This document shows positions 1 through 39,493 of a stretch of 39,493 bases of DNA, piece after piece. The translations under genes were made by a program, and so were the position numbers. The notes under the pieces are model-generated. The model made no database searches. It had not been told where the DNA came from and worked only from the letters and a program-made list of their open reading frames with translations. Position 1 is the first letter of the stretch, and every line of letters starts with the position of its first letter. Source of the stretch: a virus; the IMG/VR virus record IMGVR_UViG_3300045988_085990, positions 1-39,493 of that record; one strand, given 5' to 3'.

Positions 1-37
1 CTTCCTTTAGTTACTTAGGAATACTTAGGGGTTCCTC
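1..37. repeat. 37-nt terminal overlap, identical to 39457..39493 (junction of a circular or permuted assembly)
   Basis: Read directly: cttcctttagttacttaggaatacttaggggttcctc is present at both window ends. Confidence 0.95.
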
Positions 38-55
38 TGTATGTGTGACAATTAA
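32..55 (-). promoter_or_regulatory. Putative phage-RNAP promoter, second of a tandem pair downstream of the RNAP gene
   Basis: Minus strand reads TTAATTGTCACACATACAGAGGAA. The 15-nt core TAATTGTCACACATA is invariant in all six copies, and all are oriented with the genes. Confidence 0.75.
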
Positions 56-78
56 CCAAACAAGTGTTCTTTATAGTA

Positions 79-129
79 GACAAAAGAAGAAGGAAGTAGG
101 AAAGACCTTTGTCTCTACTTACTTCCTTC
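79..129 (-). terminator. Hairpin plus U-rich tail immediately after the RNAP gene
   Basis: On the minus strand, arms GAAGGAAGTAAGTAG (115-129) and CTACTTCCTTC (89-99) pair. An inner AGAC/GTCT pairing extends the stem. The tail is TTCTTTTGTCT. Confidence 0.6.
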
Positions 130-139
130 TCTAGCCGCA

Positions 140-2698
140 TTAGTGAAAAACGAACTTACTATCTAAGATACAGTTGATGTCTAACGAACCCTTTTCAGGG
201 AGTTCAATGTCTAATGGTTCCCCTAACAGCTCTTCAGCGTGTCTCAAGAACTCAGCTAAGGGGTCATGCTCAGTGTACAGCTTGACTAACTCTTGTCTAA
301 TAATACGCCGCAATCGAGCCGCTTCACCGAGGGAAGTCCCAAACGAGTCATGTACGGTACTGAAGTTCACACACCCTTGTCTACTTGCTTCATTAATACT
401 CATCATGAGGTGTGTAGCATCTAGGGAGTGGATGAAGTTCGGAGCGACACCTGTAGCTTGCTTGTGTCTGTCTACGTCTTCGTTCTCACTTACTGTCGTT
501 ACATAGATACGATAGCGTGTGGAGGAGTTACCAAGGCGTAATTGGAACGACTCCGTTTTCCGTGCTAGGTACATCTGCTGAATTGGCAGACCCATAGGCG
601 TCACCCATTCGACAGGCATATCCGCTTTTGCAAGAGCCGCGGCAATCTTCTTTAGACATTCCATACCTTCAATGGCGGCAACGACTGTCGTCTGTACTGC
701 CTTCCAAATTAACTTTGCGAGGTACTGAGCCGCTTGTCTTTCACCGACACCAGCAAAGCAAGGATTGTCCGCCACAGTGTCTTCATAAACCTGGTCAGCA
801 AAACCATACTGCCCACTTCCGTAAGCTAGGGTCATGACAGGACGCTTGCATACTTTGCGATTGATACCATGAGCGAGCCACGCTTCCGCCAACTGCTTCG
901 TTCCCGGCCCAAATGTACCATCCTTACGCTGTTTTCCTTTTAAGGTTCCTTCTATAGCATCTTTCTTAACCATTGTCAAGACCTTATCGGAAACTTCTCT
1001 ATAAATATCTGCTGGCTTGTCATGATCAATCAAGTTGACAGAGGAGCCACCAACAGGGTCACGGAGAAGACAGCTGTAGTGCTGAAGACCTGAGCATGTA
1101 CCGTCATATGCGATTGTACAACGGCAGTCAAAACCTGCTAGGGTCTTATGTGTGTCTAAGTATTCTAAAGCTCTCTTGTATTCCATCGTCCATGCTAAAA
1201 ACTGCCACGGCTTGTCTTGTTCTTGCCACCAAGTAAAGTCCAATGGATTTTCAGCACTAGACAAAATGTTCTGCTTGTTTTCCTCTACCCATGTCACACG
1301 GTCTTCCAGAGGAATTTTGTCATGACCTGCCAGCCCTGCCCCATGAATTGACAGCCACTTGAGGGCGTCGTGAGCGTCTTCAGCAGACACGGGTACAGGG
1401 TCAGCATACTGTAGCAATGCCTTTGTCATGTCGTCCCCTTGAGGGTTGAGGCCAGTCGGAATCGGATAGACACGGCCCCGAAAGTCTATGTTCATAGGGA
1501 ACCAGATTTTGTCATACTTTGCAAAGTCCTCAGCTACTCTGAGAATCATTACGGCTCTCAGGGCCTTCCCTTTGCGCTGGTTTTCCTTATGAATGACTTC
1601 TACCATTTTCTTTTTGTGCGCTTTGAACTGCTTGAGTAGCTCTTCATTTTCCTTAATTTCATCGTAAGCATGAGGGAAGCGTGGGAGTTGTTCGAGAGGT
1701 TTTGTCTCTGCTAGTCCTGCTACCCCACCACCAACACTCAAGTAGTGCTTGATTACTTCTAAGACAGGTTTGTTGATTCTATAGGCCGTTGCTTGAATCG
1801 CATTGACAGCTGAGTACAAACTAGACAAATCAAGTTCATTGAGTCTACTAGTATATAACTTGCGTGTCTGTGAAGACCTTGCGTAGGGGATGTAACGCAT
1901 TAAGGTTTTATTCTGAGACAAAGCCCCATAGTAACCCCCGTCCCACATGCTAGTCCATGGTTTCGGAGGAATAATAGTCGGTACATACGTGATAGCCTGA
2001 CCCACACTCTTGTCCTCTGCCTTAGCGATAGCCTGTAAAAAGATGTCCGTGGGGAGAACTTGTAAGGGCTGTGTCTTGCCTTCCTCAGACACTTCTTGAA
2101 AGACAAAGAAGTCCGTTGTTTCCACGAGTACCGCAAGTAATTGCATACCCAGTGTGGTTCGTTCCTTTGCGGTATGTTTGGTGAACGTAAAGCCTACACC
2201 CTTATAGACATGCTCCATGAAATTCCGACGGTACGAGAAATTGACACGCTCTTTGAGGCTCCGGTCAAAACGCTTGTTTTCTTTGTCTTCAAAAAATGCC
2301 ATTGCTTCTACTTCTGGCTCTAATTCAAGGCCGATTGCACCACCGATATTATTGGCAGTGAGGGAACGCCTCACCATAGCACTAATAGTAATTTTCAAAG
2401 ACAACGTAGCGCAAAGCCTAGCCAATTTTTCCGTGTCACCTTGTAATGCGAGTACATAGTCCTTGACGATTTTAGCGTAGGCAGGTTGTACCCCACGTTT
2501 CGGTTTTACGCAATCTTCTACGAACGCTTGTACATTTGCGGAGTACGTTTCTGCTAGGTGGTTCATGATACCCTGACCGACACGAGTCCGTTCATAGGCT
2601 CCGTCAGCTTTTGCCTTATTCAGCATTTGCAAAGCACGGTTTTCTGCTAAACCTTTGTACATCTTTTCAAGTTCTAACTGTTGTTCTAATGTCATCAT
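140..2698 (-). CDS. T7-like single-subunit DNA-directed RNA polymerase (852 aa)
   Basis: Motifs include RGRVYP, TLAYGS, PNFIHSLDATH and TVHDSFGT, with a C-terminal F-x-F-H-type end. T7 RNAP is 883 aa. An SD (GGAGAGAGGAG) precedes ATGATG. Confidence 0.97.
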   Translation of the reverse strand: MMTLEQQLELEKMYKGLAENRALQMLNKAKADGAYERTRVGQGIMNHLAETYSANVQAFVEDCVKPKRGVQPAYAKIVKDYVLALQGDTEKLARLCATLSLKITISAMVRRSLTANNIGGAIGLELEPEVEAMAFFEDKENKRFDRSLKERVNFSYRRNFMEHVYKGVGFTFTKHTAKERTTLGMQLLAVLVETTDFFVFQEVSEEGKTQPLQVLPTDIFLQAIAKAEDKSVGQAITYVPTIIPPKPWTSMWDGGYYGALSQNKTLMRYIPYARSSQTRKLYTSRLNELDLSSLYSAVNAIQATAYRINKPVLEVIKHYLSVGGGVAGLAETKPLEQLPRFPHAYDEIKENEELLKQFKAHKKKMVEVIHKENQRKGKALRAVMILRVAEDFAKYDKIWFPMNIDFRGRVYPIPTGLNPQGDDMTKALLQYADPVPVSAEDAHDALKWLSIHGAGLAGHDKIPLEDRVTWVEENKQNILSSAENPLDFTWWQEQDKPWQFLAWTMEYKRALEYLDTHKTLAGFDCRCTIAYDGTCSGLQHYSCLLRDPVGGSSVNLIDHDKPADIYREVSDKVLTMVKKDAIEGTLKGKQRKDGTFGPGTKQLAEAWLAHGINRKVCKRPVMTLAYGSGQYGFADQVYEDTVADNPCFAGVGERQAAQYLAKLIWKAVQTTVVAAIEGMECLKKIAAALAKADMPVEWVTPMGLPIQQMYLARKTESFQLRLGNSSTRYRIYVTTVSENEDVDRHKQATGVAPNFIHSLDATHLMMSINEASRQGCVNFSTVHDSFGTSLGEAARLRRIIRQELVKLYTEHDPLAEFLRHAEELLGEPLDIELPEKGSLDINCILDSKFVFH

Positions 2699-2709
2699 TT
2701 TAATCTCTC

Positions 2710-2733
2710 CTCTCTCCTATGTGTGACAATTAA
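2710..2733 (-). promoter_or_regulatory. Putative phage-RNAP promoter directly upstream of the RNAP gene (variant initiation region)
   Basis: Minus strand reads TTAATTGTCACACATAGGAGAGAGGAGAGATTAAAATG. The core is identical to the other copies. The leader contains the SD of the RNAP gene. Confidence 0.65.
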
Positions 2734-2748
2734 CAGAACATCTGTTTG

Positions 2749-2786
2749 GTAGCAGGTAACTTTTTCTATGTTCAGCTACCTGCTAC
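2749..2786 (-). promoter_or_regulatory. 10-bp perfect stem with 18-nt loop between the 76-aa early ORF and the RNAP promoter (possible processing site or early terminator)
   Basis: GTAGCAGGTA (2749-2758) pairs with TACCTGCTAC (2777-2786). No U-tract follows. Confidence 0.45.
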
Positions 2787-2791
2787 TCCTC

Positions 2792-3022
2792 CTACTTGAA
2801 TAGCAAGGCTTGTTTGTACGTATTCTTATGGGTCTTGCCTCCCTTGATAATGACATAGTGTCTGTTGGGGAAGGCCTGCTGAACCTTAGCTAACTCCTGC
2901 TTTACCTTGCGGCCACCTTCTGAGCCTGTGAAGCGGCTGAAAAGACAATAGCCTTGACTCTGAAGATTTTCTATTTCTGCCTCTAACTGGCATGGTCTTC
3001 CTACGTATGCGTAGTAACTCAT
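2792..3022 (-). CDS. Hypothetical early protein (76 aa from the ATG; the ORF track extends to a GTG at 3034)
   Basis: Open frame with AGGAGG upstream and tight packing against the SprT-like gene. No recognisable motif. Confidence 0.6.
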   Translation of the reverse strand: MSYYAYVGRPCQLEAEIENLQSQGYCLFSRFTGSEGGRKVKQELAKVQQAFPNRHYVIIKGGKTHKNTYKQALLFK

Positions 3023-3037
3023 TGCGTGTGTCACCTC

Positions 3038-3586
3038 CTAGTCCCTTACAATCAAGTTGGCTCTCATGGTTTCCCCTGTCGTTAGTTTGTAGACACGAGA
3101 ACCGCCATGCGCTAACAAGTCCTTGACTACCCATGCTCTTTTTGTCTTGTAGCAGTTATATTGGCCATCTTCCCACACTACTTCATACTTGCCCTTAGGC
3201 TGGTTTGCGACAAATTCCTTAGTGACACTAGGGGAAGCTAAGCGAGACAAAGTAAGCCCAAAGTGTTCCCCACATACGACACAAGCCTGTTTGAACTTAC
3301 TCCCATGATGTTCATACATGGGAAGGCAAGCATGAATACATTCGTGTACTAATGTTTCCATGAAAGGCATACCCGTGTCCGTGTCTAAGGCGTATTCGCT
3401 AATTTCAATGCGCGCAAGATCAGAATCATACAAGTAACACCGACCTAGACTCCTCGTCCGCTGGTTGAGTTGGAAAATAACTTCTCTGTCTTCAGCGAAC
3501 TGAGTACGTAAGAATAACACTTCTTGTACTTGTGCATAGACATCGAGACAAAAATCTAATTGCATTTCCGACATTGTTTTTCTCAT
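3038..3586 (-). CDS. SprT-like zinc metallopeptidase-domain protein (182 aa)
   Basis: HExxH occurs in LVHECIHAC, followed by HHGSKF and a Cys-containing segment, as in SprT/ArdC-type protease domains. A strong SD (GGGAGGAATTACC) precedes the ATG. Confidence 0.7.
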   Translation of the reverse strand: MRKTMSEMQLDFCLDVYAQVQEVLFLRTQFAEDREVIFQLNQRTRSLGRCYLYDSDLARIEISEYALDTDTGMPFMETLVHECIHACLPMYEHHGSKFKQACVVCGEHFGLTLSRLASPSVTKEFVANQPKGKYEVVWEDGQYNCYKTKRAWVVKDLLAHGGSRVYKLTTGETMRANLIVRD

Positions 3587-3605
3587 GGTAATTCCTCCCT
3601 TTTCT

Positions 3606-3665
3606 ACTAGTCCTCTAGGGACTTAATCGAGGATACTAAGGATAGCTAGTATCCTCTGTTAAATC
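3606..3665 (-). promoter_or_regulatory. Conserved early intergenic RNA hairpin module, copy A (candidate RNase III-type processing site)
   Basis: A 10-bp stem, GAGGATACTA (3629-3638) with TAGTATCCTC (3647-3656), has an 8-nt loop. The flanks TTTAACAG and TCGATTAAGTCC are shared with copy B and can form a lower stem across a 2x2 internal loop. Confidence 0.55.
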
Positions 3666-3666
3666 T

Positions 3667-4413
3667 CTAGTATTCAGCATTGGGACATACGTCGAGTGCA
3701 AAGATAATGTCTAGGGTATCGTCTGTACATTCAGCGTCCAGAATTTCCGCTTGATATCCATAGTCATACAGGATATCTAAGGCCTGTGCGGGTGTACGCC
3801 CGTCTAGGTCTTCCAGCGTGAAAATCCAATTACCCGTGGTGGTCTCCGTCGTACCTTGTAAGAAGAGCCAGCTGGCTAGTTCACCATCTGTTAATACAGG
3901 AGGTTCCCATGCAAAACTCCCGTTAGGCTTGAACTCCTCATTCCACAACTGTGATTCTATGTAAGCCGTGCTTGTGGCCTCTCCATAGTATTCAGACACA
4001 ATGTCAAGAATTAGTTCTTTGACTTCTTCTAACAATTTCGTGCAAGCGTCCTCGAACTCTCTCCAACTTGAGTCCGCTTGATATTCCCCGAAAAATAGCC
4101 ACACACGACCATTGGGAGACACTTCTAGCCTTGCATTATCGCTAGGGACAAAAACCCCCAATGCTTCTGAAAAAACTGCTAGGTCTAATTCAGTGTAAGT
4201 AGGAGACCATACGAGATTGTTAGGCCATTCAAATTCTTGAATGTTCATGAGGGCGTCGAATGGTTCGGTAAAGATACGTCCGTATTCTTCATTTACCCTG
4301 TCATTAATCAAGGGAAACAAATCTTCTAGCCAGTCCATGCAAGAGGTGACATAGTCCCTTTGGCGATTGACCAATTTTTCCTGAACGTCTTGTGCTAATT
4401 CATAAAATTTCAT
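3667..4413 (-). CDS. Acidic early protein, function unknown (248 aa from the ATG; the ORF track starts at a GTG at 4422)
   Basis: Hand count over the 251-aa ORF gives 50 Asp/Glu against 13 Lys/Arg. An SD (AAGGGAG) lies 8 nt upstream of the ATG at 4411-4413. Confidence 0.75.
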   Translation of the reverse strand: MKFYELAQDVQEKLVNRQRDYVTSCMDWLEDLFPLINDRVNEEYGRIFTEPFDALMNIQEFEWPNNLVWSPTYTELDLAVFSEALGVFVPSDNARLEVSPNGRVWLFFGEYQADSSWREFEDACTKLLEEVKELILDIVSEYYGEATSTAYIESQLWNEEFKPNGSFAWEPPVLTDGELASWLFLQGTTETTTGNWIFTLEDLDGRTPAQALDILYDYGYQAEILDAECTDDTLDIIFALDVCPNAEY

Positions 4414-4444
4414 ACTAGACACTCCCTTCTTTAATTAACTAAGT

Positions 4445-4500
4445 CACTAGTGGACTTAATCGAATACCCTAGAGAGAACCCTAGGGTACTCTGTTAAACC
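4445..4500 (-). promoter_or_regulatory. Conserved early intergenic RNA hairpin module, copy B
   Basis: An 8-bp stem (4465-4472 with 4481-4488) has an 8-nt loop. It has the same flanks (ggacttaatcga ... ctctgttaaa) and the same internal-loop geometry as copy A. Confidence 0.55.
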
Positions 4501-4502
4501 CG

Positions 4503-4937
4503 CTAATGGTCTTCTTCTCCTTCGTCGACTTCTTCATAATCTTCATTGAAAAGTACGTCGTCTCCAGCGTCTACAAGGGCGTCTAAGTCTGGCCAAGGTG
4601 TATCACCGCTGTAGTAGTGTGTGAGGTGGTCGATAATGTCGTCTTTTAAGTCCTCTGCCTCTGCGACTACATCACGACAATCCCCAGATTCTAGATTGCC
4701 GTAGGCATTGAAACGGAAGTAGTCGTCGTTGGGGTCAAATTCCCCGAACCACATCATTTGTGCAATTTCCAGAGGTGTGTAACCGTCTAGAAGTTCATCA
4801 AATTCGTCCATGTCATAATAGATAGAGTCTTCAAAACATCCATCATACGCGTTCATGTCCCGAAGCAAGTAAGCAAGGTCGTCCCCGATTAAGTGTTCAA
4901 CATAGTTACGGATTGCTTGTTCTCTTGTCATTGTCAT
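4503..4937 (-). CDS. Very acidic early protein (144 aa), candidate Ocr-like DNA mimic or anti-restriction protein
   Basis: Hand count gives 43 Asp/Glu against 6 Lys/Arg. It has an acidic C-terminal tail (EDYEEVDEGEEDH). It is the second gene after the host-type promoters, in the position of T7 gene 0.3. Confidence 0.8.
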   Translation of the reverse strand: MTMTREQAIRNYVEHLIGDDLAYLLRDMNAYDGCFEDSIYYDMDEFDELLDGYTPLEIAQMMWFGEFDPNDDYFRFNAYGNLESGDCRDVVAEAEDLKDDIIDHLTHYYSGDTPWPDLDALVDAGDDVLFNEDYEEVDEGEEDH

Positions 4938-5032
4938 AGTAAAATCTCCCTTCTTTTCACTAGGCTTGTCTCATCAGTAGGCAGGTAGCCAGCCTTACCT
5001 AGACAAAGGGAGCTAGTCCCCTTGTTTCGACA

Positions 5033-5290
5033 CTAGTCATGATAGATACGGATGCACCTATCACCATTCCCACGGATGAGGATATATTCACCTTTATCCT
5101 CGATAACATCACCTTTGTGGAGATAGTAAGTCGTTGCTGTGTATTCCATTCGTTCTAACGGTTCAAAGTGAGTTACCGTGAAGCACATGCGCCCACTTTT
5201 AAAGACACCCACTTCTTTAAACAGCCGAGTTTTTGCCATACATGCGACTCTCTTACCGTTTAAAGCCTTATACAGTTCTATTCTTTTCAT
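5033..5290 (-). CDS. Hypothetical first early protein (85 aa)
   Basis: First ORF downstream of the two sigma70-like promoters, with a purine-rich SD (AAAGGAAAGGAA). Confidence 0.65.
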   Translation of the reverse strand: MKRIELYKALNGKRVACMAKTRLFKEVGVFKSGRMCFTVTHFEPLERMEYTATTYYLHKGDVIEDKGEYILIRGNGDRCIRIYHD

Positions 5291-5318
5291 GTTGCTTTCA
5301 TTCCTTTCCTTTGTCTAC

Positions 5319-5347
5319 ATGTTACCATGTTCCTCAACGTTTGTCAA
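5319..5347 (-). promoter_or_regulatory. Host sigma70/sigmaA-type early promoter (proximal)
   Basis: Minus strand reads TTGACA, 17 nt, TAACAT, with TG at the extended -10 position (TGGTAACAT). It lies about 25 nt upstream of the ATG at 5290. Confidence 0.6.
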
Positions 5348-5393
5348 GCACCTTTTTGAATTTCCTTTAAGTGCTTTCCCTTTCGTTGACTAT

Positions 5394-5422
5394 ATGATAC
5401 CGTGTATTACTCCATTTGTCAA
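5394..5422 (-). promoter_or_regulatory. Host sigma70/sigmaA-type early promoter (distal)
   Basis: Minus strand reads TTGACA, 17 nt, TATCAT, with an A-rich UP-like tract (GAAAAAAGTTTGAAATA) upstream. Confidence 0.6.
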
Positions 5423-5729
5423 TAGGTATTTCAAACTTTTTTCAATGGTTCTCTATAATAGTATATATAGATAACAATATGTTTTACACCAATACCAATA
5501 GTTTGTTATAGGAATTACCAGCGGTTATATATGGTATTCCCATAGGTTATTATGCATTGGAGTTATGAGTGGTATTCCGGAGTGTAACATGCAGATATAT
5601 AATTTACTCTATTATGCACTTTGGGAATACTCCCCATACCCAATAGTTACCAATAAGAACCCTTCGTATCCCAAACAGTACCCAATAGGTAAGAAAAAAC
5701 GAACAGATGTTCTAAAAGTATAACCTTGT

Positions 5730-5810
5730 GGAATACCAATAGTACATCTGAGGAATATTATGGAATACCAATAGTACACCATAAGAATAGTATGGAATAC
5801 CAATAGTACA
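5730..5810. repeat. Three direct copies of GGAATACCAATAGTACA
   Basis: Copies lie at 5730-5746, 5762-5778 and 5794-5810. Confidence 0.9.
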
Positions 5811-5843
5811 CAATAGGAATAGTATGATAGAACGAATGTTCTA

Positions 5844-5945
5844 AAAAATATAGGTAAGACAAACAGTTAGGCGTACAAACCTTAGGGAATACAAACAGTA
5901 CACATTAGGTATACTATAGAAAAAATATAGGTAAGACAAACAGTT
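5844..5945. repeat. Perfect 25-bp direct repeat AAAAATATAGGTAAGACAAACAGTT (two copies)
   Basis: Copies lie at 5844-5868 and 5921-5945. Confidence 0.9.
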
Positions 5946-5955
5946 GGAGGTAGAC

Positions 5956-6051
5956 ACAGTTAGTAGTTAAAGAAGTTAGAAGTAGGAACAGTTAGGAATA
6001 CAAACAGTTAGTAGTTAAAGAAGTTAGAAGTAGGAACAGTTAGGAATACAA
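5956..6051. repeat. Perfect 48-bp tandem duplication
   Basis: acagttagtagttaaagaagttagaagtaggaacagttaggaatacaa occurs at 5956-6003 and again at 6004-6051. A third unit starts (acagtt) at 6052. Confidence 0.95.
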
Positions 6052-6315
6052 ACAGTTCACAGTAGGAAGCCTTAGGATACCGAATAGTTCGCAGTGGAAA
6101 TATTGAGTAATGAGAATATTCAGGGATACGAAAGAATACAGGGGTATACGGGGGAACTGCTGTGTGCTGTTCATTCATGTATGTGCTCATAAATTTTTCT
6201 ATGATTTTACTTTTAGGGTTTTCTAGGGCTATCCACGGAGAATAACCCTAGTAAACACATGGGAAAAGATAAGTATAAGGAGGAAAGTAGAAAAGGAAGT
6301 GTTTTTACTTTGTAA

Positions 6316-6541
6316 CACCTAACTGTAATACTGAAGGATTCCTTCAGAACACTAAAGGACTCCTAACTGTAATACTGAGTGATTCCTTACTGTTTTATAT
6401 AAGGAGTAGTTGTTGGTGCTGTTCCTTAGTTAGTTCCTATGGAGTTCCCTTAGAGTTCTCTTAGGGTTCCAGTTGTGTCCCCTTTGAGTTCCTAAGGTTC
6501 GGTGTTCTTTAGGATACTAAAGGACTCCCAACTGTAATACT
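6316..6541. repeat. Dispersed repeats and a palindrome downstream of the right-end promoters
   Basis: A 26-bp repeat actaaaggactcc(t/c)aactgtaatact lies at 6351-6376 and 6516-6541. A partial copy lies near 6318-6335. The perfect palindrome CTGAAGGA-T-TCCTTCAG lies at 6331-6347. Confidence 0.85.
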
Positions 6542-6608
6542 AAGGAATACTAAGGAATACTAGAGGAACAGAGGAAATACTTAGATATACTTTAGTTTTC
6601 CTCTGCCT

Positions 6609-6632
6609 TCCTTCTGTATGTGTGACAATTAA
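6609..6632 (-). promoter_or_regulatory. Putative phage-RNAP promoter after the terminase, pointing into the repeat/terminal region
   Basis: Minus strand reads TTAATTGTCACACATACAGAAGGA. Confidence 0.7.
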
Positions 6633-6636
6633 CGAC

Positions 6637-6660
6637 TTTGTATATATGTGTGACAATTAC
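6637..6660 (-). promoter_or_regulatory. Putative phage-RNAP promoter variant overlapping the terminase stop codon
   Basis: Minus strand reads GTAATTGTCACACATATATACAAA. The TAA of TAATTG (6657-6659) is the stop codon of the terminase large subunit. Confidence 0.6.
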
Positions 6661-7277
6661 CATTTCTTCTTCATAATGTTCCTATTACTACCTACATCTT
6701 CTTCTACTCCATACATCATAGAGAACAGCCCTCTATCTTCATCCAGAGCTGTCTCCAGAAACTCTTCTAACTGCTCATCCAGTCCAGTCTGGTAATCTCT
6801 ATCCATGACATCTAACCAGTAAGACACAGCCATAGTCAGGGCATCTAAGCGGTCATCGTGTGCCAAGGAACCCCTATCTCTACTTAGACGGGTCATCTGG
6901 TAAATCAGCGAATATTTCTGTCCCTTTTCCTCGTACACGCTGTAGTCATCTCGAATAACTGTTTCAGCCATGATAATCTTGTGTCTCATCATAACAGGCT
7001 CTAAGGTGTCTATAATACGAGCTTCCTTCTGTACTGTGTTCTTCACTTCCTGAACCGCACAGGGATAAATACTCGTTAGGATAGGCTTGAACAGCTGGGT
7101 GAACATACCGTCACCAAAGTTTGCTTCTACTACAATCTCATTAACTCCATGGATTTTAGCCTTGTTAGCCAGCTGTGTCAACACGGAATCTGAGTAACCG
7201 TCCTGAAAGCCCCCCACTTCTACTACAAAAAGATACCCATTCAGGTACTTCACGATAGCGTAGGCCGTTTCGTCCTT
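6657..7277 (-). CDS. Terminase large subunit, exon 2 (206 aa plus stop)
   Basis: It continues the T7 gp19 alignment exactly after DPSGRG: KDETAYA, GGFQDGYSD, NFGDGMF, YSLIYQMTR, ALAHDDRLDAL. There is no ATG or SD of its own. Confidence 0.9.
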   Translation of the reverse strand, partial: KDETAYAIVKYLNGYLFVVEVGGFQDGYSDSVLTQLANKAKIHGVNEIVVEANFGDGMFTQLFKPILTSIYPCAVQEVKNTVQKEARIIDTLEPVMMRHKIIMAETVIRDDYSVYEEKGQKYSLIYQMTRLSRDRGSLAHDDRLDALTMAVSYWLDVMDRDYQTGLDEQLEEFLETALDEDRGLFSMMYGVEEDVGSNRNIMKKKW

Positions 7278-8087
7278 CAATCAGCCTATTCGTTCTGCTT
7301 TCCAACCCTTTGAGTGATGTCGTTTTCCTTTAGCCACTAGACGTAAATTTTGGGGTGAAAGATTATGCTCTCTGCAAAAAACAGCAAAAGAAAAAGGCTC
7401 ATATATCGTACCATCAGGTGCAATGAGTCTGAATTTTTCACCCTGTCCATAATTATGAGGAACATTACCTTTTTGAAAAGTAGTAGGATGACAGTCACCA
7501 CATACTGTCCCTGACTTGCGTTTTGGTAAATATTTACCACAAATAGGACAACGAACTGTTTTTCTGTTTCCACCTGCCATTGAGTTCCACCCCATATTCA
7601 TTTTAGGGCGTAGATTATATTCCATTGCTAATGCTTCTTCTTTTGGTAACATAGCAATTAAATCAATTTGAATATTATCCTTACCCAGTTGTCTTAGAAT
7701 TGTGCCAACAGGTCTCTTACTACACATATGCTGACTAAGACGATAGGAAAGACTACGGCGAGTAATACCCACATAACCTTCCTGTATATTTCTGTTTCCT
7801 ACTTCATGAATATGGTACACTTTATATAATCTTGTTTTTTCTCTAAACAATAATATCACTCTCTTTTCTTTTTAGTGTTACGGTACTTCGTTAGGGTACC
7901 TCACTATATTGCTATAGTGTTCAGACTATATCTTCTATCAAAAGATAGTGCGCTGTTTCCACCGAACCATTGCGGTGTACTAATAGTCGTTGAACGTTTC
8001 CTATAAAAGGACTTCGCTGCTGATTGTCTTAGAAAGAGTTCCCAGCAATTAAACGCATTTTTTAACGTAGGAGCAAGGACGTATTTT
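7278..8087 (-). mobile_element. Group I intron (810 nt) in the terminase large subunit gene, carrying a GIY-YIG homing endonuclease ORF
   Basis: The 5' exon end AGGGGU pairs with intron GCUCCU (8069-8074), with a U.G pair at the splice site. The adjacent intron GUCCUU (8075-8080) is a perfect complement of the first 6 nt of exon 2 (AAGGAC), giving P10. The intron ends in G. The region 7860-8060 has several hairpins, including a GCAA tetraloop. Confidence 0.8.
7281..7859 (-). CDS. GIY-YIG homing endonuclease (intron-encoded, about 192 aa; start uncertain, GTG or TTG)
   Basis: It has YKVYHIH...GYVGIT...R..H...E.N (the GIY-YIG module), a Cys4 zinc finger (CPICG...CGDC), NUMOD3-like FQKGNVPHN and a C-terminal HTH-like segment ending KGW. 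Confidence 0.85.
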   Translation of the reverse strand: MILLFREKTRLYKVYHIHEVGNRNIQEGYVGITRRSLSYRLSQHMCSKRPVGTILRQLGKDNIQIDLIAMLPKEEALAMEYNLRPKMNMGWNSMAGGNRKTVRCPICGKYLPKRKSGTVCGDCHPTTFQKGNVPHNYGQGEKFRLIAPDGTIYEPFSFAVFCREHNLSPQNLRLVAKGKRHHSKGWKAERIG

Positions 8088-9185
8088 ACCCCTACCCGAT
8101 GGGTCTATAGCCATAACACACCCTGTATACTTAGCTGTCTCCTTGCTTCTACTATGCTCACGGTAGAAAAAGTCACCCTTAATGGCGACACAGGGAAGGT
8201 CGTTCAGGCGATACTCATAACCACTTGACCAAGACCACTTCAAAGAAGTTTCATCCATATCCACATTAGACACTATCAAGTCCTGTGTCTTCAGGGGGTA
8301 TTTTTCGTAGTCAGACAAGTTAGTATTCAGTTTGAACTGCAAAGAAAACCCTGCTTTACCATAGGAGAGCCTACGTTCCTCGATTTCTTCTTCAGGGAAT
8401 CTGCGAGGGTCAGTCGGCTTTCCTGCGTACAGCGTGGGGTTTTTGTCGTAAGGGATAGCAATAAAAGGAGCTAATTTGTCCCCGTAATACTCACGTTCTT
8501 CAGGTGTCTCAGGGTATACCAATGGAAAAATATAGCAGGAATACCCACGATTCTGAAGCTCATTGTACAGCGACATTTCGTTCTGTGGAGTACCGAGGTA
8601 TATAACCTTACTTCTATCCCCCGGCTTGATAATAGCGTCAAATTCCTTTACATCCTCAAACAGCTTGTCTCTCCGTGTCTGTGTGCTGGAGTTGTTGGGT
8701 ATCTCCACGTCATCGGCGATCAATATGTCTGCACGGCTCCCTGTTATCTGACCCGTAATACCAACAGACTTTACAGAGGGGGAAATATCCGCTACGGCTT
8801 CCCCAACATCAAAAAGGTTCTGTGTGTTACGCTGTCCGTCACGAGGTTTTAGATGAGACAAAAAGTCTAGTAAGTAGATTATCTTTCGGATAAACACTGC
8901 GTTTGCATCTGCTCTGTCTTTACTTGCAGAGATAATGAGACACTTCAGTTGAGGGTCATTCCAAAGTGACCACACAACATAAGCACAAGTGATGAAGGAC
9001 TTAGCTACCCCACGGAACCCTTCAATAATGTATCTCTTCTCAGGGCATTTCATAAGAAGAGTTGCGATTGCATACTGTATGTCTGTTGGTTCAGGAAGAG
9101 CGATTTCATACCAGAGAATAAACAGGAACTTCCTGAAGTCTTTCTTAGCCGCTTCAATTTGCTCTGCTGTCCATTGAACTTGCAC
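8088..9185 (-). CDS. Terminase large subunit, exon 1 (366 aa; GTG start)
   Basis: Strong by-eye match to T7 gp19: FRGVAKSFITCAYVVWSLWNDPQLK, SPSVKSVGITGQITGSRADILIADDVEIP, VIYLGTPQ, YGKAGFSLQF, IDPSGRG. AGGAGG lies about 9 nt upstream of the GTG. Confidence 0.93.
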
Positions 9186-24009: not shown

Positions 24010-24046
24010 ATAATAAAAATAAGAGGGAGTTCCTAAGAACCCCCTC
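24010..24046 (-). terminator. Hairpin plus U-tract terminator just after the major capsid gene (analogue of T7 T-phi)
   Basis: RNA sense reads GAGGGGGTTC-TTAG-GAACTCCCTC, a 10-bp stem with one G.U pair, followed by TTATTTTTATTATT. Confidence 0.8.
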
Positions 24047-39456: not shown

Positions 39457-39493
39457 CTTCCTTTAGTTACTTAGGAATACTTAGGGGTTCCTC
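39457..39493. repeat. 37-nt terminal overlap (second copy of 1..37)
   Basis: Identical to nt 1-37. Confidence 0.95.

Follow-up and report, generated by a model that had tools for sequence, protein, structure and literature searches.

Does a T7-like phage whose RNA polymerase (RNAP) gene is directly preceded by a copy of the phage's own promoter transcribe that gene with its own enzyme, and what could keep such a gene silent? The question is raised by the window, which is the whole stretch of DNA analysed here: the complete 39,493-nucleotide (39.5-kb) record of a T7-like gut podophage, with 37-bp direct terminal repeats (1-37 = 39457-39493) and a gene orientation that is minus strand throughout. 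The preferred reading, to which we give a probability of roughly 0.6, is that the RNAP of the phage initiates at a functional promoter in 2732..2710, and that the RNAP gene is partly self-transcribed in a positive feedback.

The polymerase gene and the phage promoter in front of it

The features that make up the polymerase unit are listed below.

140..2698, minus strand: T7-type single-subunit RNAP gene of 852 amino acids, ATG at 2698, with Pfam matches to RNA_pol (E=2.6e-104) and RPOL_N
2707..2712, minus strand: Shine-Dalgarno (SD) sequence GAGGAG as read from the sequence, 8 nt before the RNAP ATG and inside the predicted initially transcribed region
2710..2732, minus strand: phage-type promoter before the RNAP gene, TAATTGTCACACAT AGG AGAGAG, an exact copy of the 15-mer repeat
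32..54, minus strand: consensus phage promoter directly after the RNAP gene, an exact copy of the 15-mer repeat and the analogue of T7 phi1.1A
54, 2732, 6631, 6659, 38539 and 39403 (first base of each), gene strand: copies of the 15-mer TAATTGTCACACATA, intergenic or at gene ends

The window RNAP aligns over its full length with T7 RNAP structures (E about 1e-126), while the closest RNAP of a cultured phage is 36% identical. When cultured phages were searched for DNA close to the window just short patches of 71-78% identity were found, and the GTDB species genomes gave no relative of the window RNAP. Relatives were gathered from IMG/VR (nine, with RNAPs 89-97% identical), from three metagenome contigs and from prophage copies. 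The close set consists of 14 relatives whose RNAPs are 89-97% identical to that of the window; L019 is more distant (58%), as are L020 and L021 (46% and 43%). In L009, an IMG/VR contig of 41.6 kb, the RNAP gene (6001-8563) is frameshifted by four single-base indels when compared with L002, but these are probably assembly errors rather than the mark of a pseudogene.

The 15-mer TAATTGTCACACATA has six exact occurrences in the window, all on the gene strand, while about 1e-4 would be expected by chance for an exact 15-mer in 39 kb. A scan of the window allowing up to eight mismatches to the 23-mer consensus gave no further credible copy, late region included. Since the late region has no phage promoter, the late genes must be read from the three to four promoters adjoining the RNAP gene. 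Directly after the major capsid gene there is a strong terminator-like hairpin, GAGGGGGTTCTTAGGAACTCCCTC followed by TTATTTTTAT (24023-24046, minus strand), which is the analogue of T7 Tphi. Downstream of the RNAP gene the relatives have three promoters (+2644, +2761, and +2834 from the ATG) against two in the window. The ends of the window record fall between the promoters at 54 and 39403, within near-identical repeats, and the assembly may have lost one promoter copy by collapse, or 37 bp may understate the true terminal repeat. No known RNA family was found in window 1-7000 at E<=1.

The copy at 2732 has its 15-nt core at 2732..2718 (minus strand), at a distance of 20-34 nt upstream from the RNAP ATG. 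It was originally predicted that a promoter-core copy ends 12 nt before this ATG, which is confirmed, the copy being an exact match to the 15-mer. The stretch 2732..2710 reads TAATTGTCACACATAGGAGAGAG, while the consensus reads ...ATACAGAGGAA. The recognition half, 2732..2719, is the same in all six window copies. After the 15-mer four copies continue with CAGA(G/A)GGAA, while GGAGAGAGGAGAGATTAAAATG is found at 2732 and TATACAAAG at 6659. The copy at 2732 differs from the four consensus copies at positions -3..-1 and +1, in keeping with the prediction that its initiation region is divergent. Its start is predicted at about A2715, which is the T7-equivalent position 18, and with this start the leader would be about 17 nt long and made up of the SD. 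A likeness of GTTCTGTT to the class II pause signal of T7 (ATCTGTT) was also considered, but dropped because the relatives do not conserve it.

A phage promoter before a phage RNAP gene is already known, and is ordinary in many T7 relatives outside T7 and T3. The novelty that the original prediction saw in this arrangement was overstated, as such promoters are annotated in gh-1 and EcoDS1, and a feedback model has been published for LUZ100 (PMC10134795). The accompanying statement that gene 1 of T7 itself is transcribed by host RNAP holds in essence, since beside gene 1 the T7 record shows the E. coli C promoter and no T7 promoter. T7 and T3 resemble the window in the order of host promoters, early genes, RNAP gene and then tandem phage promoters (phi1.1A/B), and in having an element just before gene 1. 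However, in T7 and T3 this place is taken by the E. coli C promoter and the RNase III site R1, with no phage promoter. The one phage promoter that they have upstream is phiOL, which lies at the extreme left, ahead of the whole early region, and the early terminator TE is found after gene 1.3, not before gene 1.

In the gh-1 record phi1 lies about 100 nt before the RNAP gene, overlapped by the minor terminator Te1 and with an RNase III site upstream, while in the record of EcoDS1 (Kayfunavirus, K1F-like) a 'promoter phi' is placed 70 nt before gene 1. A k-mer test for a promoter before the RNAP gene recovers both gh-1 and EcoDS1, and is negative for T7, T3, SP6, Dickeya JA10, and Vibrio N4. The gh-1 and K1F-like phages differ from the window in being lytic phages of Proteobacteria whose promoters have the full consensus and lie 70-120 nt before the RNAP gene; an operator-like dyad is not described for them. 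The closest parallel is the Pseudomonas phage LUZ100, in which terminator T4 is followed by phi1, a phage promoter with a mapped start site, and then immediately by the RNAP gene (Putzeys et al., 2023, PMC10134795). The model put forward for LUZ100 starts from read-through by host RNAP, after which positive feedback sets in; a repressor is also proposed, with the promoter as its target (PMC10134795). LUZ100 is a temperate-type T7-like phage with the order terminator, phage promoter, RNAP; compared to such a unit the window has the phage promoter directly before the RNAP gene, but lacks an integrase and an intact terminator. The start site of LUZ100 was mapped experimentally, while that of the window is predicted from the sequence. 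The repressor proposed for LUZ100 is MarR-like and its host is Pseudomonas, whereas here the dyad is LexA-type and the host is Megasphaera. Autoregulation of a kinase plus the RNAP has also been predicted for phiA318 (PMC4099482).

Conservation and co-variation with the specificity loop

Every one of the 14 close relatives has the promoter copy, at 33-39 nt before its RNAP ATG. L019 has a dialect of its own, TAATTGTCCC..., with the copy about 200 nt before the RNAP ATG, while a search of L020 and L021 for repeated promoters gave no recognisable promoter family. Three dialects are otherwise seen: TAATTGTCACACATACAGAGGAA in group A, TAATTGTCCCACATACAGAGGAA in group B, and TAATTGTCCCACAGAGTAGAGGAA in group C. 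The recognition half is invariant save for position 9, where the RNAP-upstream copy always has the A or C of its own genome. The sole difference between the specificity loops in the RNAP alignment is Q719 in group A against an arginine in groups B and C, and A or C at position 9 tracks Q719 or R in nine relatives, with the RNAP-upstream copy following. The Q719 codon is found at 542-544 in the window, and the residue aligns to Q744 of T7 RNAP, which is among the residues altered in laboratory-evolved specificity variants (PMC11880802). Q719 goes with promoters reading ..TGTCACAC.. and R719, in relatives, with ..TGTCCCAC... The RNAP tree displays four clades, (A1,B) against (A2,C), and this grouping implies that the A/C switch took at least two events or was moved by recombination, and that the copy before gene 1 followed each time. 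The Q719R / position-9 pair is a clean natural specificity switch in this polymerase lineage. As the copy at 2732 is kept in every relative with a recognisable promoter family and co-varies with the specificity loop, it is a genuine and selectively maintained member of the family, which supports the original prediction of a phage-type promoter before the RNAP gene.

The initiation half behaves differently from the recognition half. In the RNAP-upstream copies of the relatives positions 15-17 are variable, whereas A18 and G19 are invariant, and these two bases become +1 and +2 if the first T of TAATTG is taken as -17, as in T7. On the 3' side of CACAT the RNAP-upstream copy never matches the consensus in any relative. 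In L001, L007, and L008 this copy has TAGAGGA at positions 17-23, which is the same as in the group C consensus promoters. That the divergent initiation region attenuates the copy at 2732, as had been suggested, is at most a possibility, as the consensus promoters of relatives with 90%-identical RNAPs also begin AGAGG at the same position. The SD is found downstream of the predicted +1 in every relative. An invariant recognition half combined with loosely kept bases at -3..-1 and a fixed purine start suggests a functional promoter rather than a decaying one.

All consensus promoters of group C (L004-L006; for instance L004 7012, 7130, 7206, and 8071) have an altered initiation half, CACAGAGTAGAGG, which is one base longer than CACATACAGAGG, and the RNAP is nonetheless 90% identical. 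This points to weak constraint on positions -4..-1, or else to a start that has moved. A diverged promoter-like copy, TAATTGTGCCAC(A/C)TAAAG(A/G)AGGAAG, is found before an early gene in L002 (194), L005 (3413), and L009 (5122), and is absent in the window.

The upstream region in temperate and integrase-less phages

Upstream of the promoter three further features bear on how the RNAP gene is first transcribed.

2749..2786, minus strand: hairpin with a 13-bp stem and a 12-nt loop, no U-run; RNAfold -21 kcal/mol, z=-5.8
2792..3022, minus strand: orf76, which immediately precedes the RNAP unit and encodes a conserved 76-aa protein; in all relatives its identity is 83-97%
5319..5422, minus strand: two sigma70-type early promoters, TTGACA-17-TATCAT (5422..5394) and TTGACA-17-TAACAT (5347..5319)

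Both the hairpin (2786..2749) and the palindrome AACAGA-TGT-TCTGTT (2748..2734) described in the original prediction are present. In the window the hairpin stem is followed by CAAACAG, and a terminator consensus scan finds nothing at the hairpin. In 12 of the 14 close relatives (L002-L009, L016, L032, L035, and L036) a stem of 17-20 bp is followed directly by TTTTTAT; the hairpin of the relatives has a 2-nt bulge in the stem and a calculated energy of -26 kcal/mol. The relatives with 46% and 43% RNAP identity also have a hairpin and a T-run directly before the RNAP gene. In the window and L001 deletions took part of the 3' arm of the hairpin and the entire T-run, and the window hairpin is probably the decayed remnant of an intrinsic-terminator-like element. 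The idea that the hairpin and the palindrome are regulatory elements is borne out to the extent that the former is terminator-like in the relatives and the latter contains what appears to be an SOS-box-type dyad. No sigma70 site with at least 10 of 12 matches was found between the hairpin and the RNAP ATG in any relative. A stretch after the pre-RNAP hairpin, TTTATACCC (L021 3880-3895; L002 1945-1960; L019 9760-9775), is kept down to 43% RNAP identity and is far better conserved than the DNA around it.

The host-type promoters that had been proposed at 5319-5422 are present, and in the relatives early sigma70-type promoters are kept 2-3 kb upstream of the RNAP gene. No terminator-like site was found on the gene strand between 5319 and 2698. 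The orf76 protein has no PHROG or Pfam match, and its AlphaFold model (pLDDT 81) gives a best PDB fold match of only E=0.09. Ahead of orf76 the temperate relatives have an extended -10 (TGATATACT) with a box on either side, and this 55-bp two-box promoter-like module is cleanly deleted in the window and L001.

RNAPs 90% identical to that of the window are encoded inside Megasphaera chromosomes, where the efflux gene flanking the prophage is 98-99% identical to those of M. elsdenii and M. intestinihominis. The left arm of the prophage contains a tyrosine integrase, a 65-aa HTH_3 repressor, five operators, a 120-aa HTH protein, orf76, the terminator, the promoter and the RNAP gene. An integrase is found in L004, L005, L007-L009, L016, L017, and L019, while the complete 39.5-kb window record has no PF00589 match and the gene is absent at the homologous place in L001. 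In L016 (4869-12562) and L017 (Megasphaera sp. GCA_041327815.1 and GCA_027494185.1) the T7-like prophage adjoins an RND efflux operon, and its RNAP region lies between two identical DDE_5 IS copies, so that this prophage is possibly disabled. Between the divergent HTH_3 and HTH genes of L016 (8890-9100; also L005 2600-2800 and L009 3970-4180) there are five operator-like repeats, ACAACCAAAYGGATGT, two of which lie in the spacers of TTGACA-type promoters. This looks like a CI/Cro-type switch in a T7-like phage.

The window phage looks like a virulent derivative, in which the dyad and the decayed hairpin would be what is left of a lysis/lysogeny switch that the Megasphaera prophages have intact. 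As it lacks the integrase, the boxed orf76 promoter and the 3' arm and U-run of the terminator, its RNAP gene, like that of L001, would first be transcribed by host RNAP together with the early genes, as in T7; in the window this would be read-through from 5422/5347, which can reach the RNAP gene now that the U-run is lost. The retained phage promoter would then act as a booster, and the feedback loop of the window is probably that rather than the only route. The importance that had been ascribed to the promoter in this particular phage was accordingly overstated, given a terminator without a U-run and possible host read-through from 5422/5347; with nothing to halt that read-through, the promoter may contribute little. 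Taken one step further, the module would work in the temperate relatives, whereas in the window essentially all RNAP mRNA would come from host read-through and the promoter copy would merely persist. The decayed terminator, the deleted boxed orf76 promoter and the missing integrase, shared by the window and L001, are consistent with this, as is the lack of a terminator between 5319 and 2698. Still, such a relic is unlikely, because the recognition half and the AG at +1/+2 are perfect in both phages despite deletions a few bases away. The RNAP genes of the window and L001 are only about 92% identical, so promoter decay would have had time to show.

The hairpin could also be an RNase III processing site or an mRNA-stabilising site, like R1 before gene 1 in T7 and T3, instead of the remnant of a terminator. 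Its position in the window is that of R1 in T3, and its long perfect stem without a U-run would fit such a role. T7-type R sites typically have a bipartite stem of about 20 bp with an internal loop, however, and the pre-RNAP hairpin has no such loop; TTTTTAT directly after the stem in 12 of 14 relatives, and a hairpin with a T-run in the distant relatives too, make this explanation less likely than a terminator remnant, though still conceivable.

The SOS-box-type dyad and proposed control of the polymerase gene

The hairpin is separated from the promoter by a short dyad that recurs at other places in the window.

2736..2747, minus strand: SOS-box-type dyad AAACAGATGTTC (reverse complement GAACATCTGTTT), preceding the promoter TAATTG by 3 nt and overlapping the palindrome 2734-2748
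58..69, minus strand: a second dyad of the SOS-box type, GAACACTTGTTT, preceding by 3 nt the TAATTG of the promoter at 54
5830-5841 and 5701-5712, minus strand: two more SOS-type dyads, both perfect, GAACATTCGTTC and GAACATCTGTTC, within the repeats of the left end, where there are no genes

In 15 sequences compared, the promoter is flanked by CCAAAC-N4-GTT(C/T), whose half-sites are invariant and whose 4-nt spacer takes five different forms. Such a combination is typical of sites bound by a dimeric protein. On the opposite strand the flank becomes GAAC-N4-GTTT, and GAAC-N4-GTT(C/T) precedes lexA three times in each of three Megasphaera genomes (e.g., GAACACATGTTT and GAACAAACGTTT). These lexA boxes are the classical Firmicute SOS (Cheo) box, and the dyad matches them at 8/8 positions. 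Upstream of Megasphaera recA no box was found, but recA follows cinA in a cinA-recA operon, which makes this region uninformative. The window has four GAAC-N4-GTT(C/T) boxes in all, against 2.1 +/- 1.4 in shuffled sequences, and none of them lies in a credible gene. The dyad at 58..69 has the same offset in L004, L005, L008, and L016. The dyads at 5841 and 5712 are each preceded by TTTTA, and both lie upstream of the early promoters. In L019 the layout is box, -10, box, hairpin, box and phage promoter, and the distance from dyad to promoter is 8 nt instead of 3.

Since the dyad does not co-vary with the immunity region, host LexA seems a better candidate ligand than an XRE repressor, although both may bind. 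If instead the dyad were the operator of a phage-encoded repressor of the XRE/Cro-CI type, the module would be a classical immunity target. Five operators, AACCAAAYGGATGT, are indeed found between the 65-aa HTH_3 and 120-aa HTH genes in L005, L009, and L016, the RNAP-proximal site of L005 matches the XRE operator at 14/14 positions, and the operators of some relatives share 12-14 nt with the dyad. This assignment is nevertheless doubtful, as L019 has different operators (TGTAGTGACAATGT, three copies) and the same dyad, while L004, L006 and the window have kept the dyad with no XRE gene. In addition, the XRE operators are without the second half-site GTTC, whereas the dyad equals the lexA boxes at 8/8 positions. 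The idea that the dyad is a degenerate copy of an XRE operator was downgraded for the same reasons, namely that L019 keeps it beside different operators and that the other-strand reading is a full match to a lexA box.

Combined with the preferred reading of 2732..2710 as a working promoter, these observations suggest a conserved control module made up of an intrinsic terminator, an SOS-box-type dyad, the phage promoter, the SD and the RNAP gene. In the temperate Megasphaera prophages this module would keep the RNAP off. Once LexA, or a repressor sharing its site, is removed, some host-RNAP transcripts would leak past the terminator, and the polymerase would then amplify itself and lock in. What the sequences show directly is the features themselves, how they are conserved and how they co-vary. 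A start near A2715, self-amplification by the RNAP, a stop at the hairpin and binding of LexA are all inferred, the last from the identity of the motif. The L004-type genomes have strong unboxed early promoters, and the proposed module does not account for their silence as prophages.

A more specific proposal, which we put forward tentatively and consider rather less than evenly supported, is that a host LexA box at -32..-21 against a T7-type promoter turns the RNAP autogene into an SOS-triggered, self-locking lysis switch, from which the window phage is a virulent escape derivative. DNA damage would free both the boxed orf76 promoter and the RNAP promoter from LexA, and leakage through the terminator would give the first RNAP and then self-amplification. 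The window phage would have deleted the boxed promoter, the tail of the terminator and the integrase.

It is very unlikely that the RNAP binds -17..-5 of the 2732 copy yet initiates poorly, the site serving as a roadblock or sink in negative autoregulation. In its favour, the match to the consensus is limited to the binding half and -3..-1 are off-consensus in all relatives. Against it, the expected start has A18 and G19 without exception, phi1 of LUZ100, the known case, initiates, and -3..-1 seem loosely constrained, group C having other bases there than groups A/B in its consensus promoters too. A T7-type RNAP sitting on a promoter is, moreover, a poor roadblock.

Parts of the proposed switch have engineered or natural counterparts. 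Dubendorff and Studier reportedly described, in 1991, a synthetic T7 autogene with the RNAP gene under its cognate promoter, and in the T7lac promoters an operator is set against a T7-type promoter as a gate, downstream of +1. Both of these are engineered, and while the T7lac operator lies downstream of +1, the dyad of the phage lies upstream, at -32..-21. Among natural systems, the lysogeny of the tectivirus GIL01 is maintained by host LexA (PMC4551915). GIL01 is likewise a temperate phage of a Firmicute, and its promoters contain boxes for host LexA, whether in place of a CI repressor or alongside one (PMC4551915). It belongs to another virus family, however, its boxes lie in host-type promoters, and the small co-repressor gp7 is needed (PMC4551915). 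Here one candidate box type abuts a promoter for a single-subunit RNAP. Within the literature that was searched, three things are new: a LexA-type dyad set against a T7-type promoter, Megasphaera as the host, and the series of decay from temperate to virulent phages.

This one family holds both prophages and integrase-less members, and it therefore shows which parts are kept and which are discarded when a temperate T7-like phage turns virulent. The promoter and the dyad have been kept, while the terminator, the boxed host-type promoter and the integrase have been discarded. If the dyad is a LexA site, it would explain how a dangerous autocatalytic polymerase is silenced in T7-like prophages of a gut Firmicute, and would provide a natural design for repressor-gated orthogonal RNAP circuits. 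If the SOS-switch reading is true, this would be the first natural operator-gated promoter for a single-subunit RNAP under a global regulator of the host.
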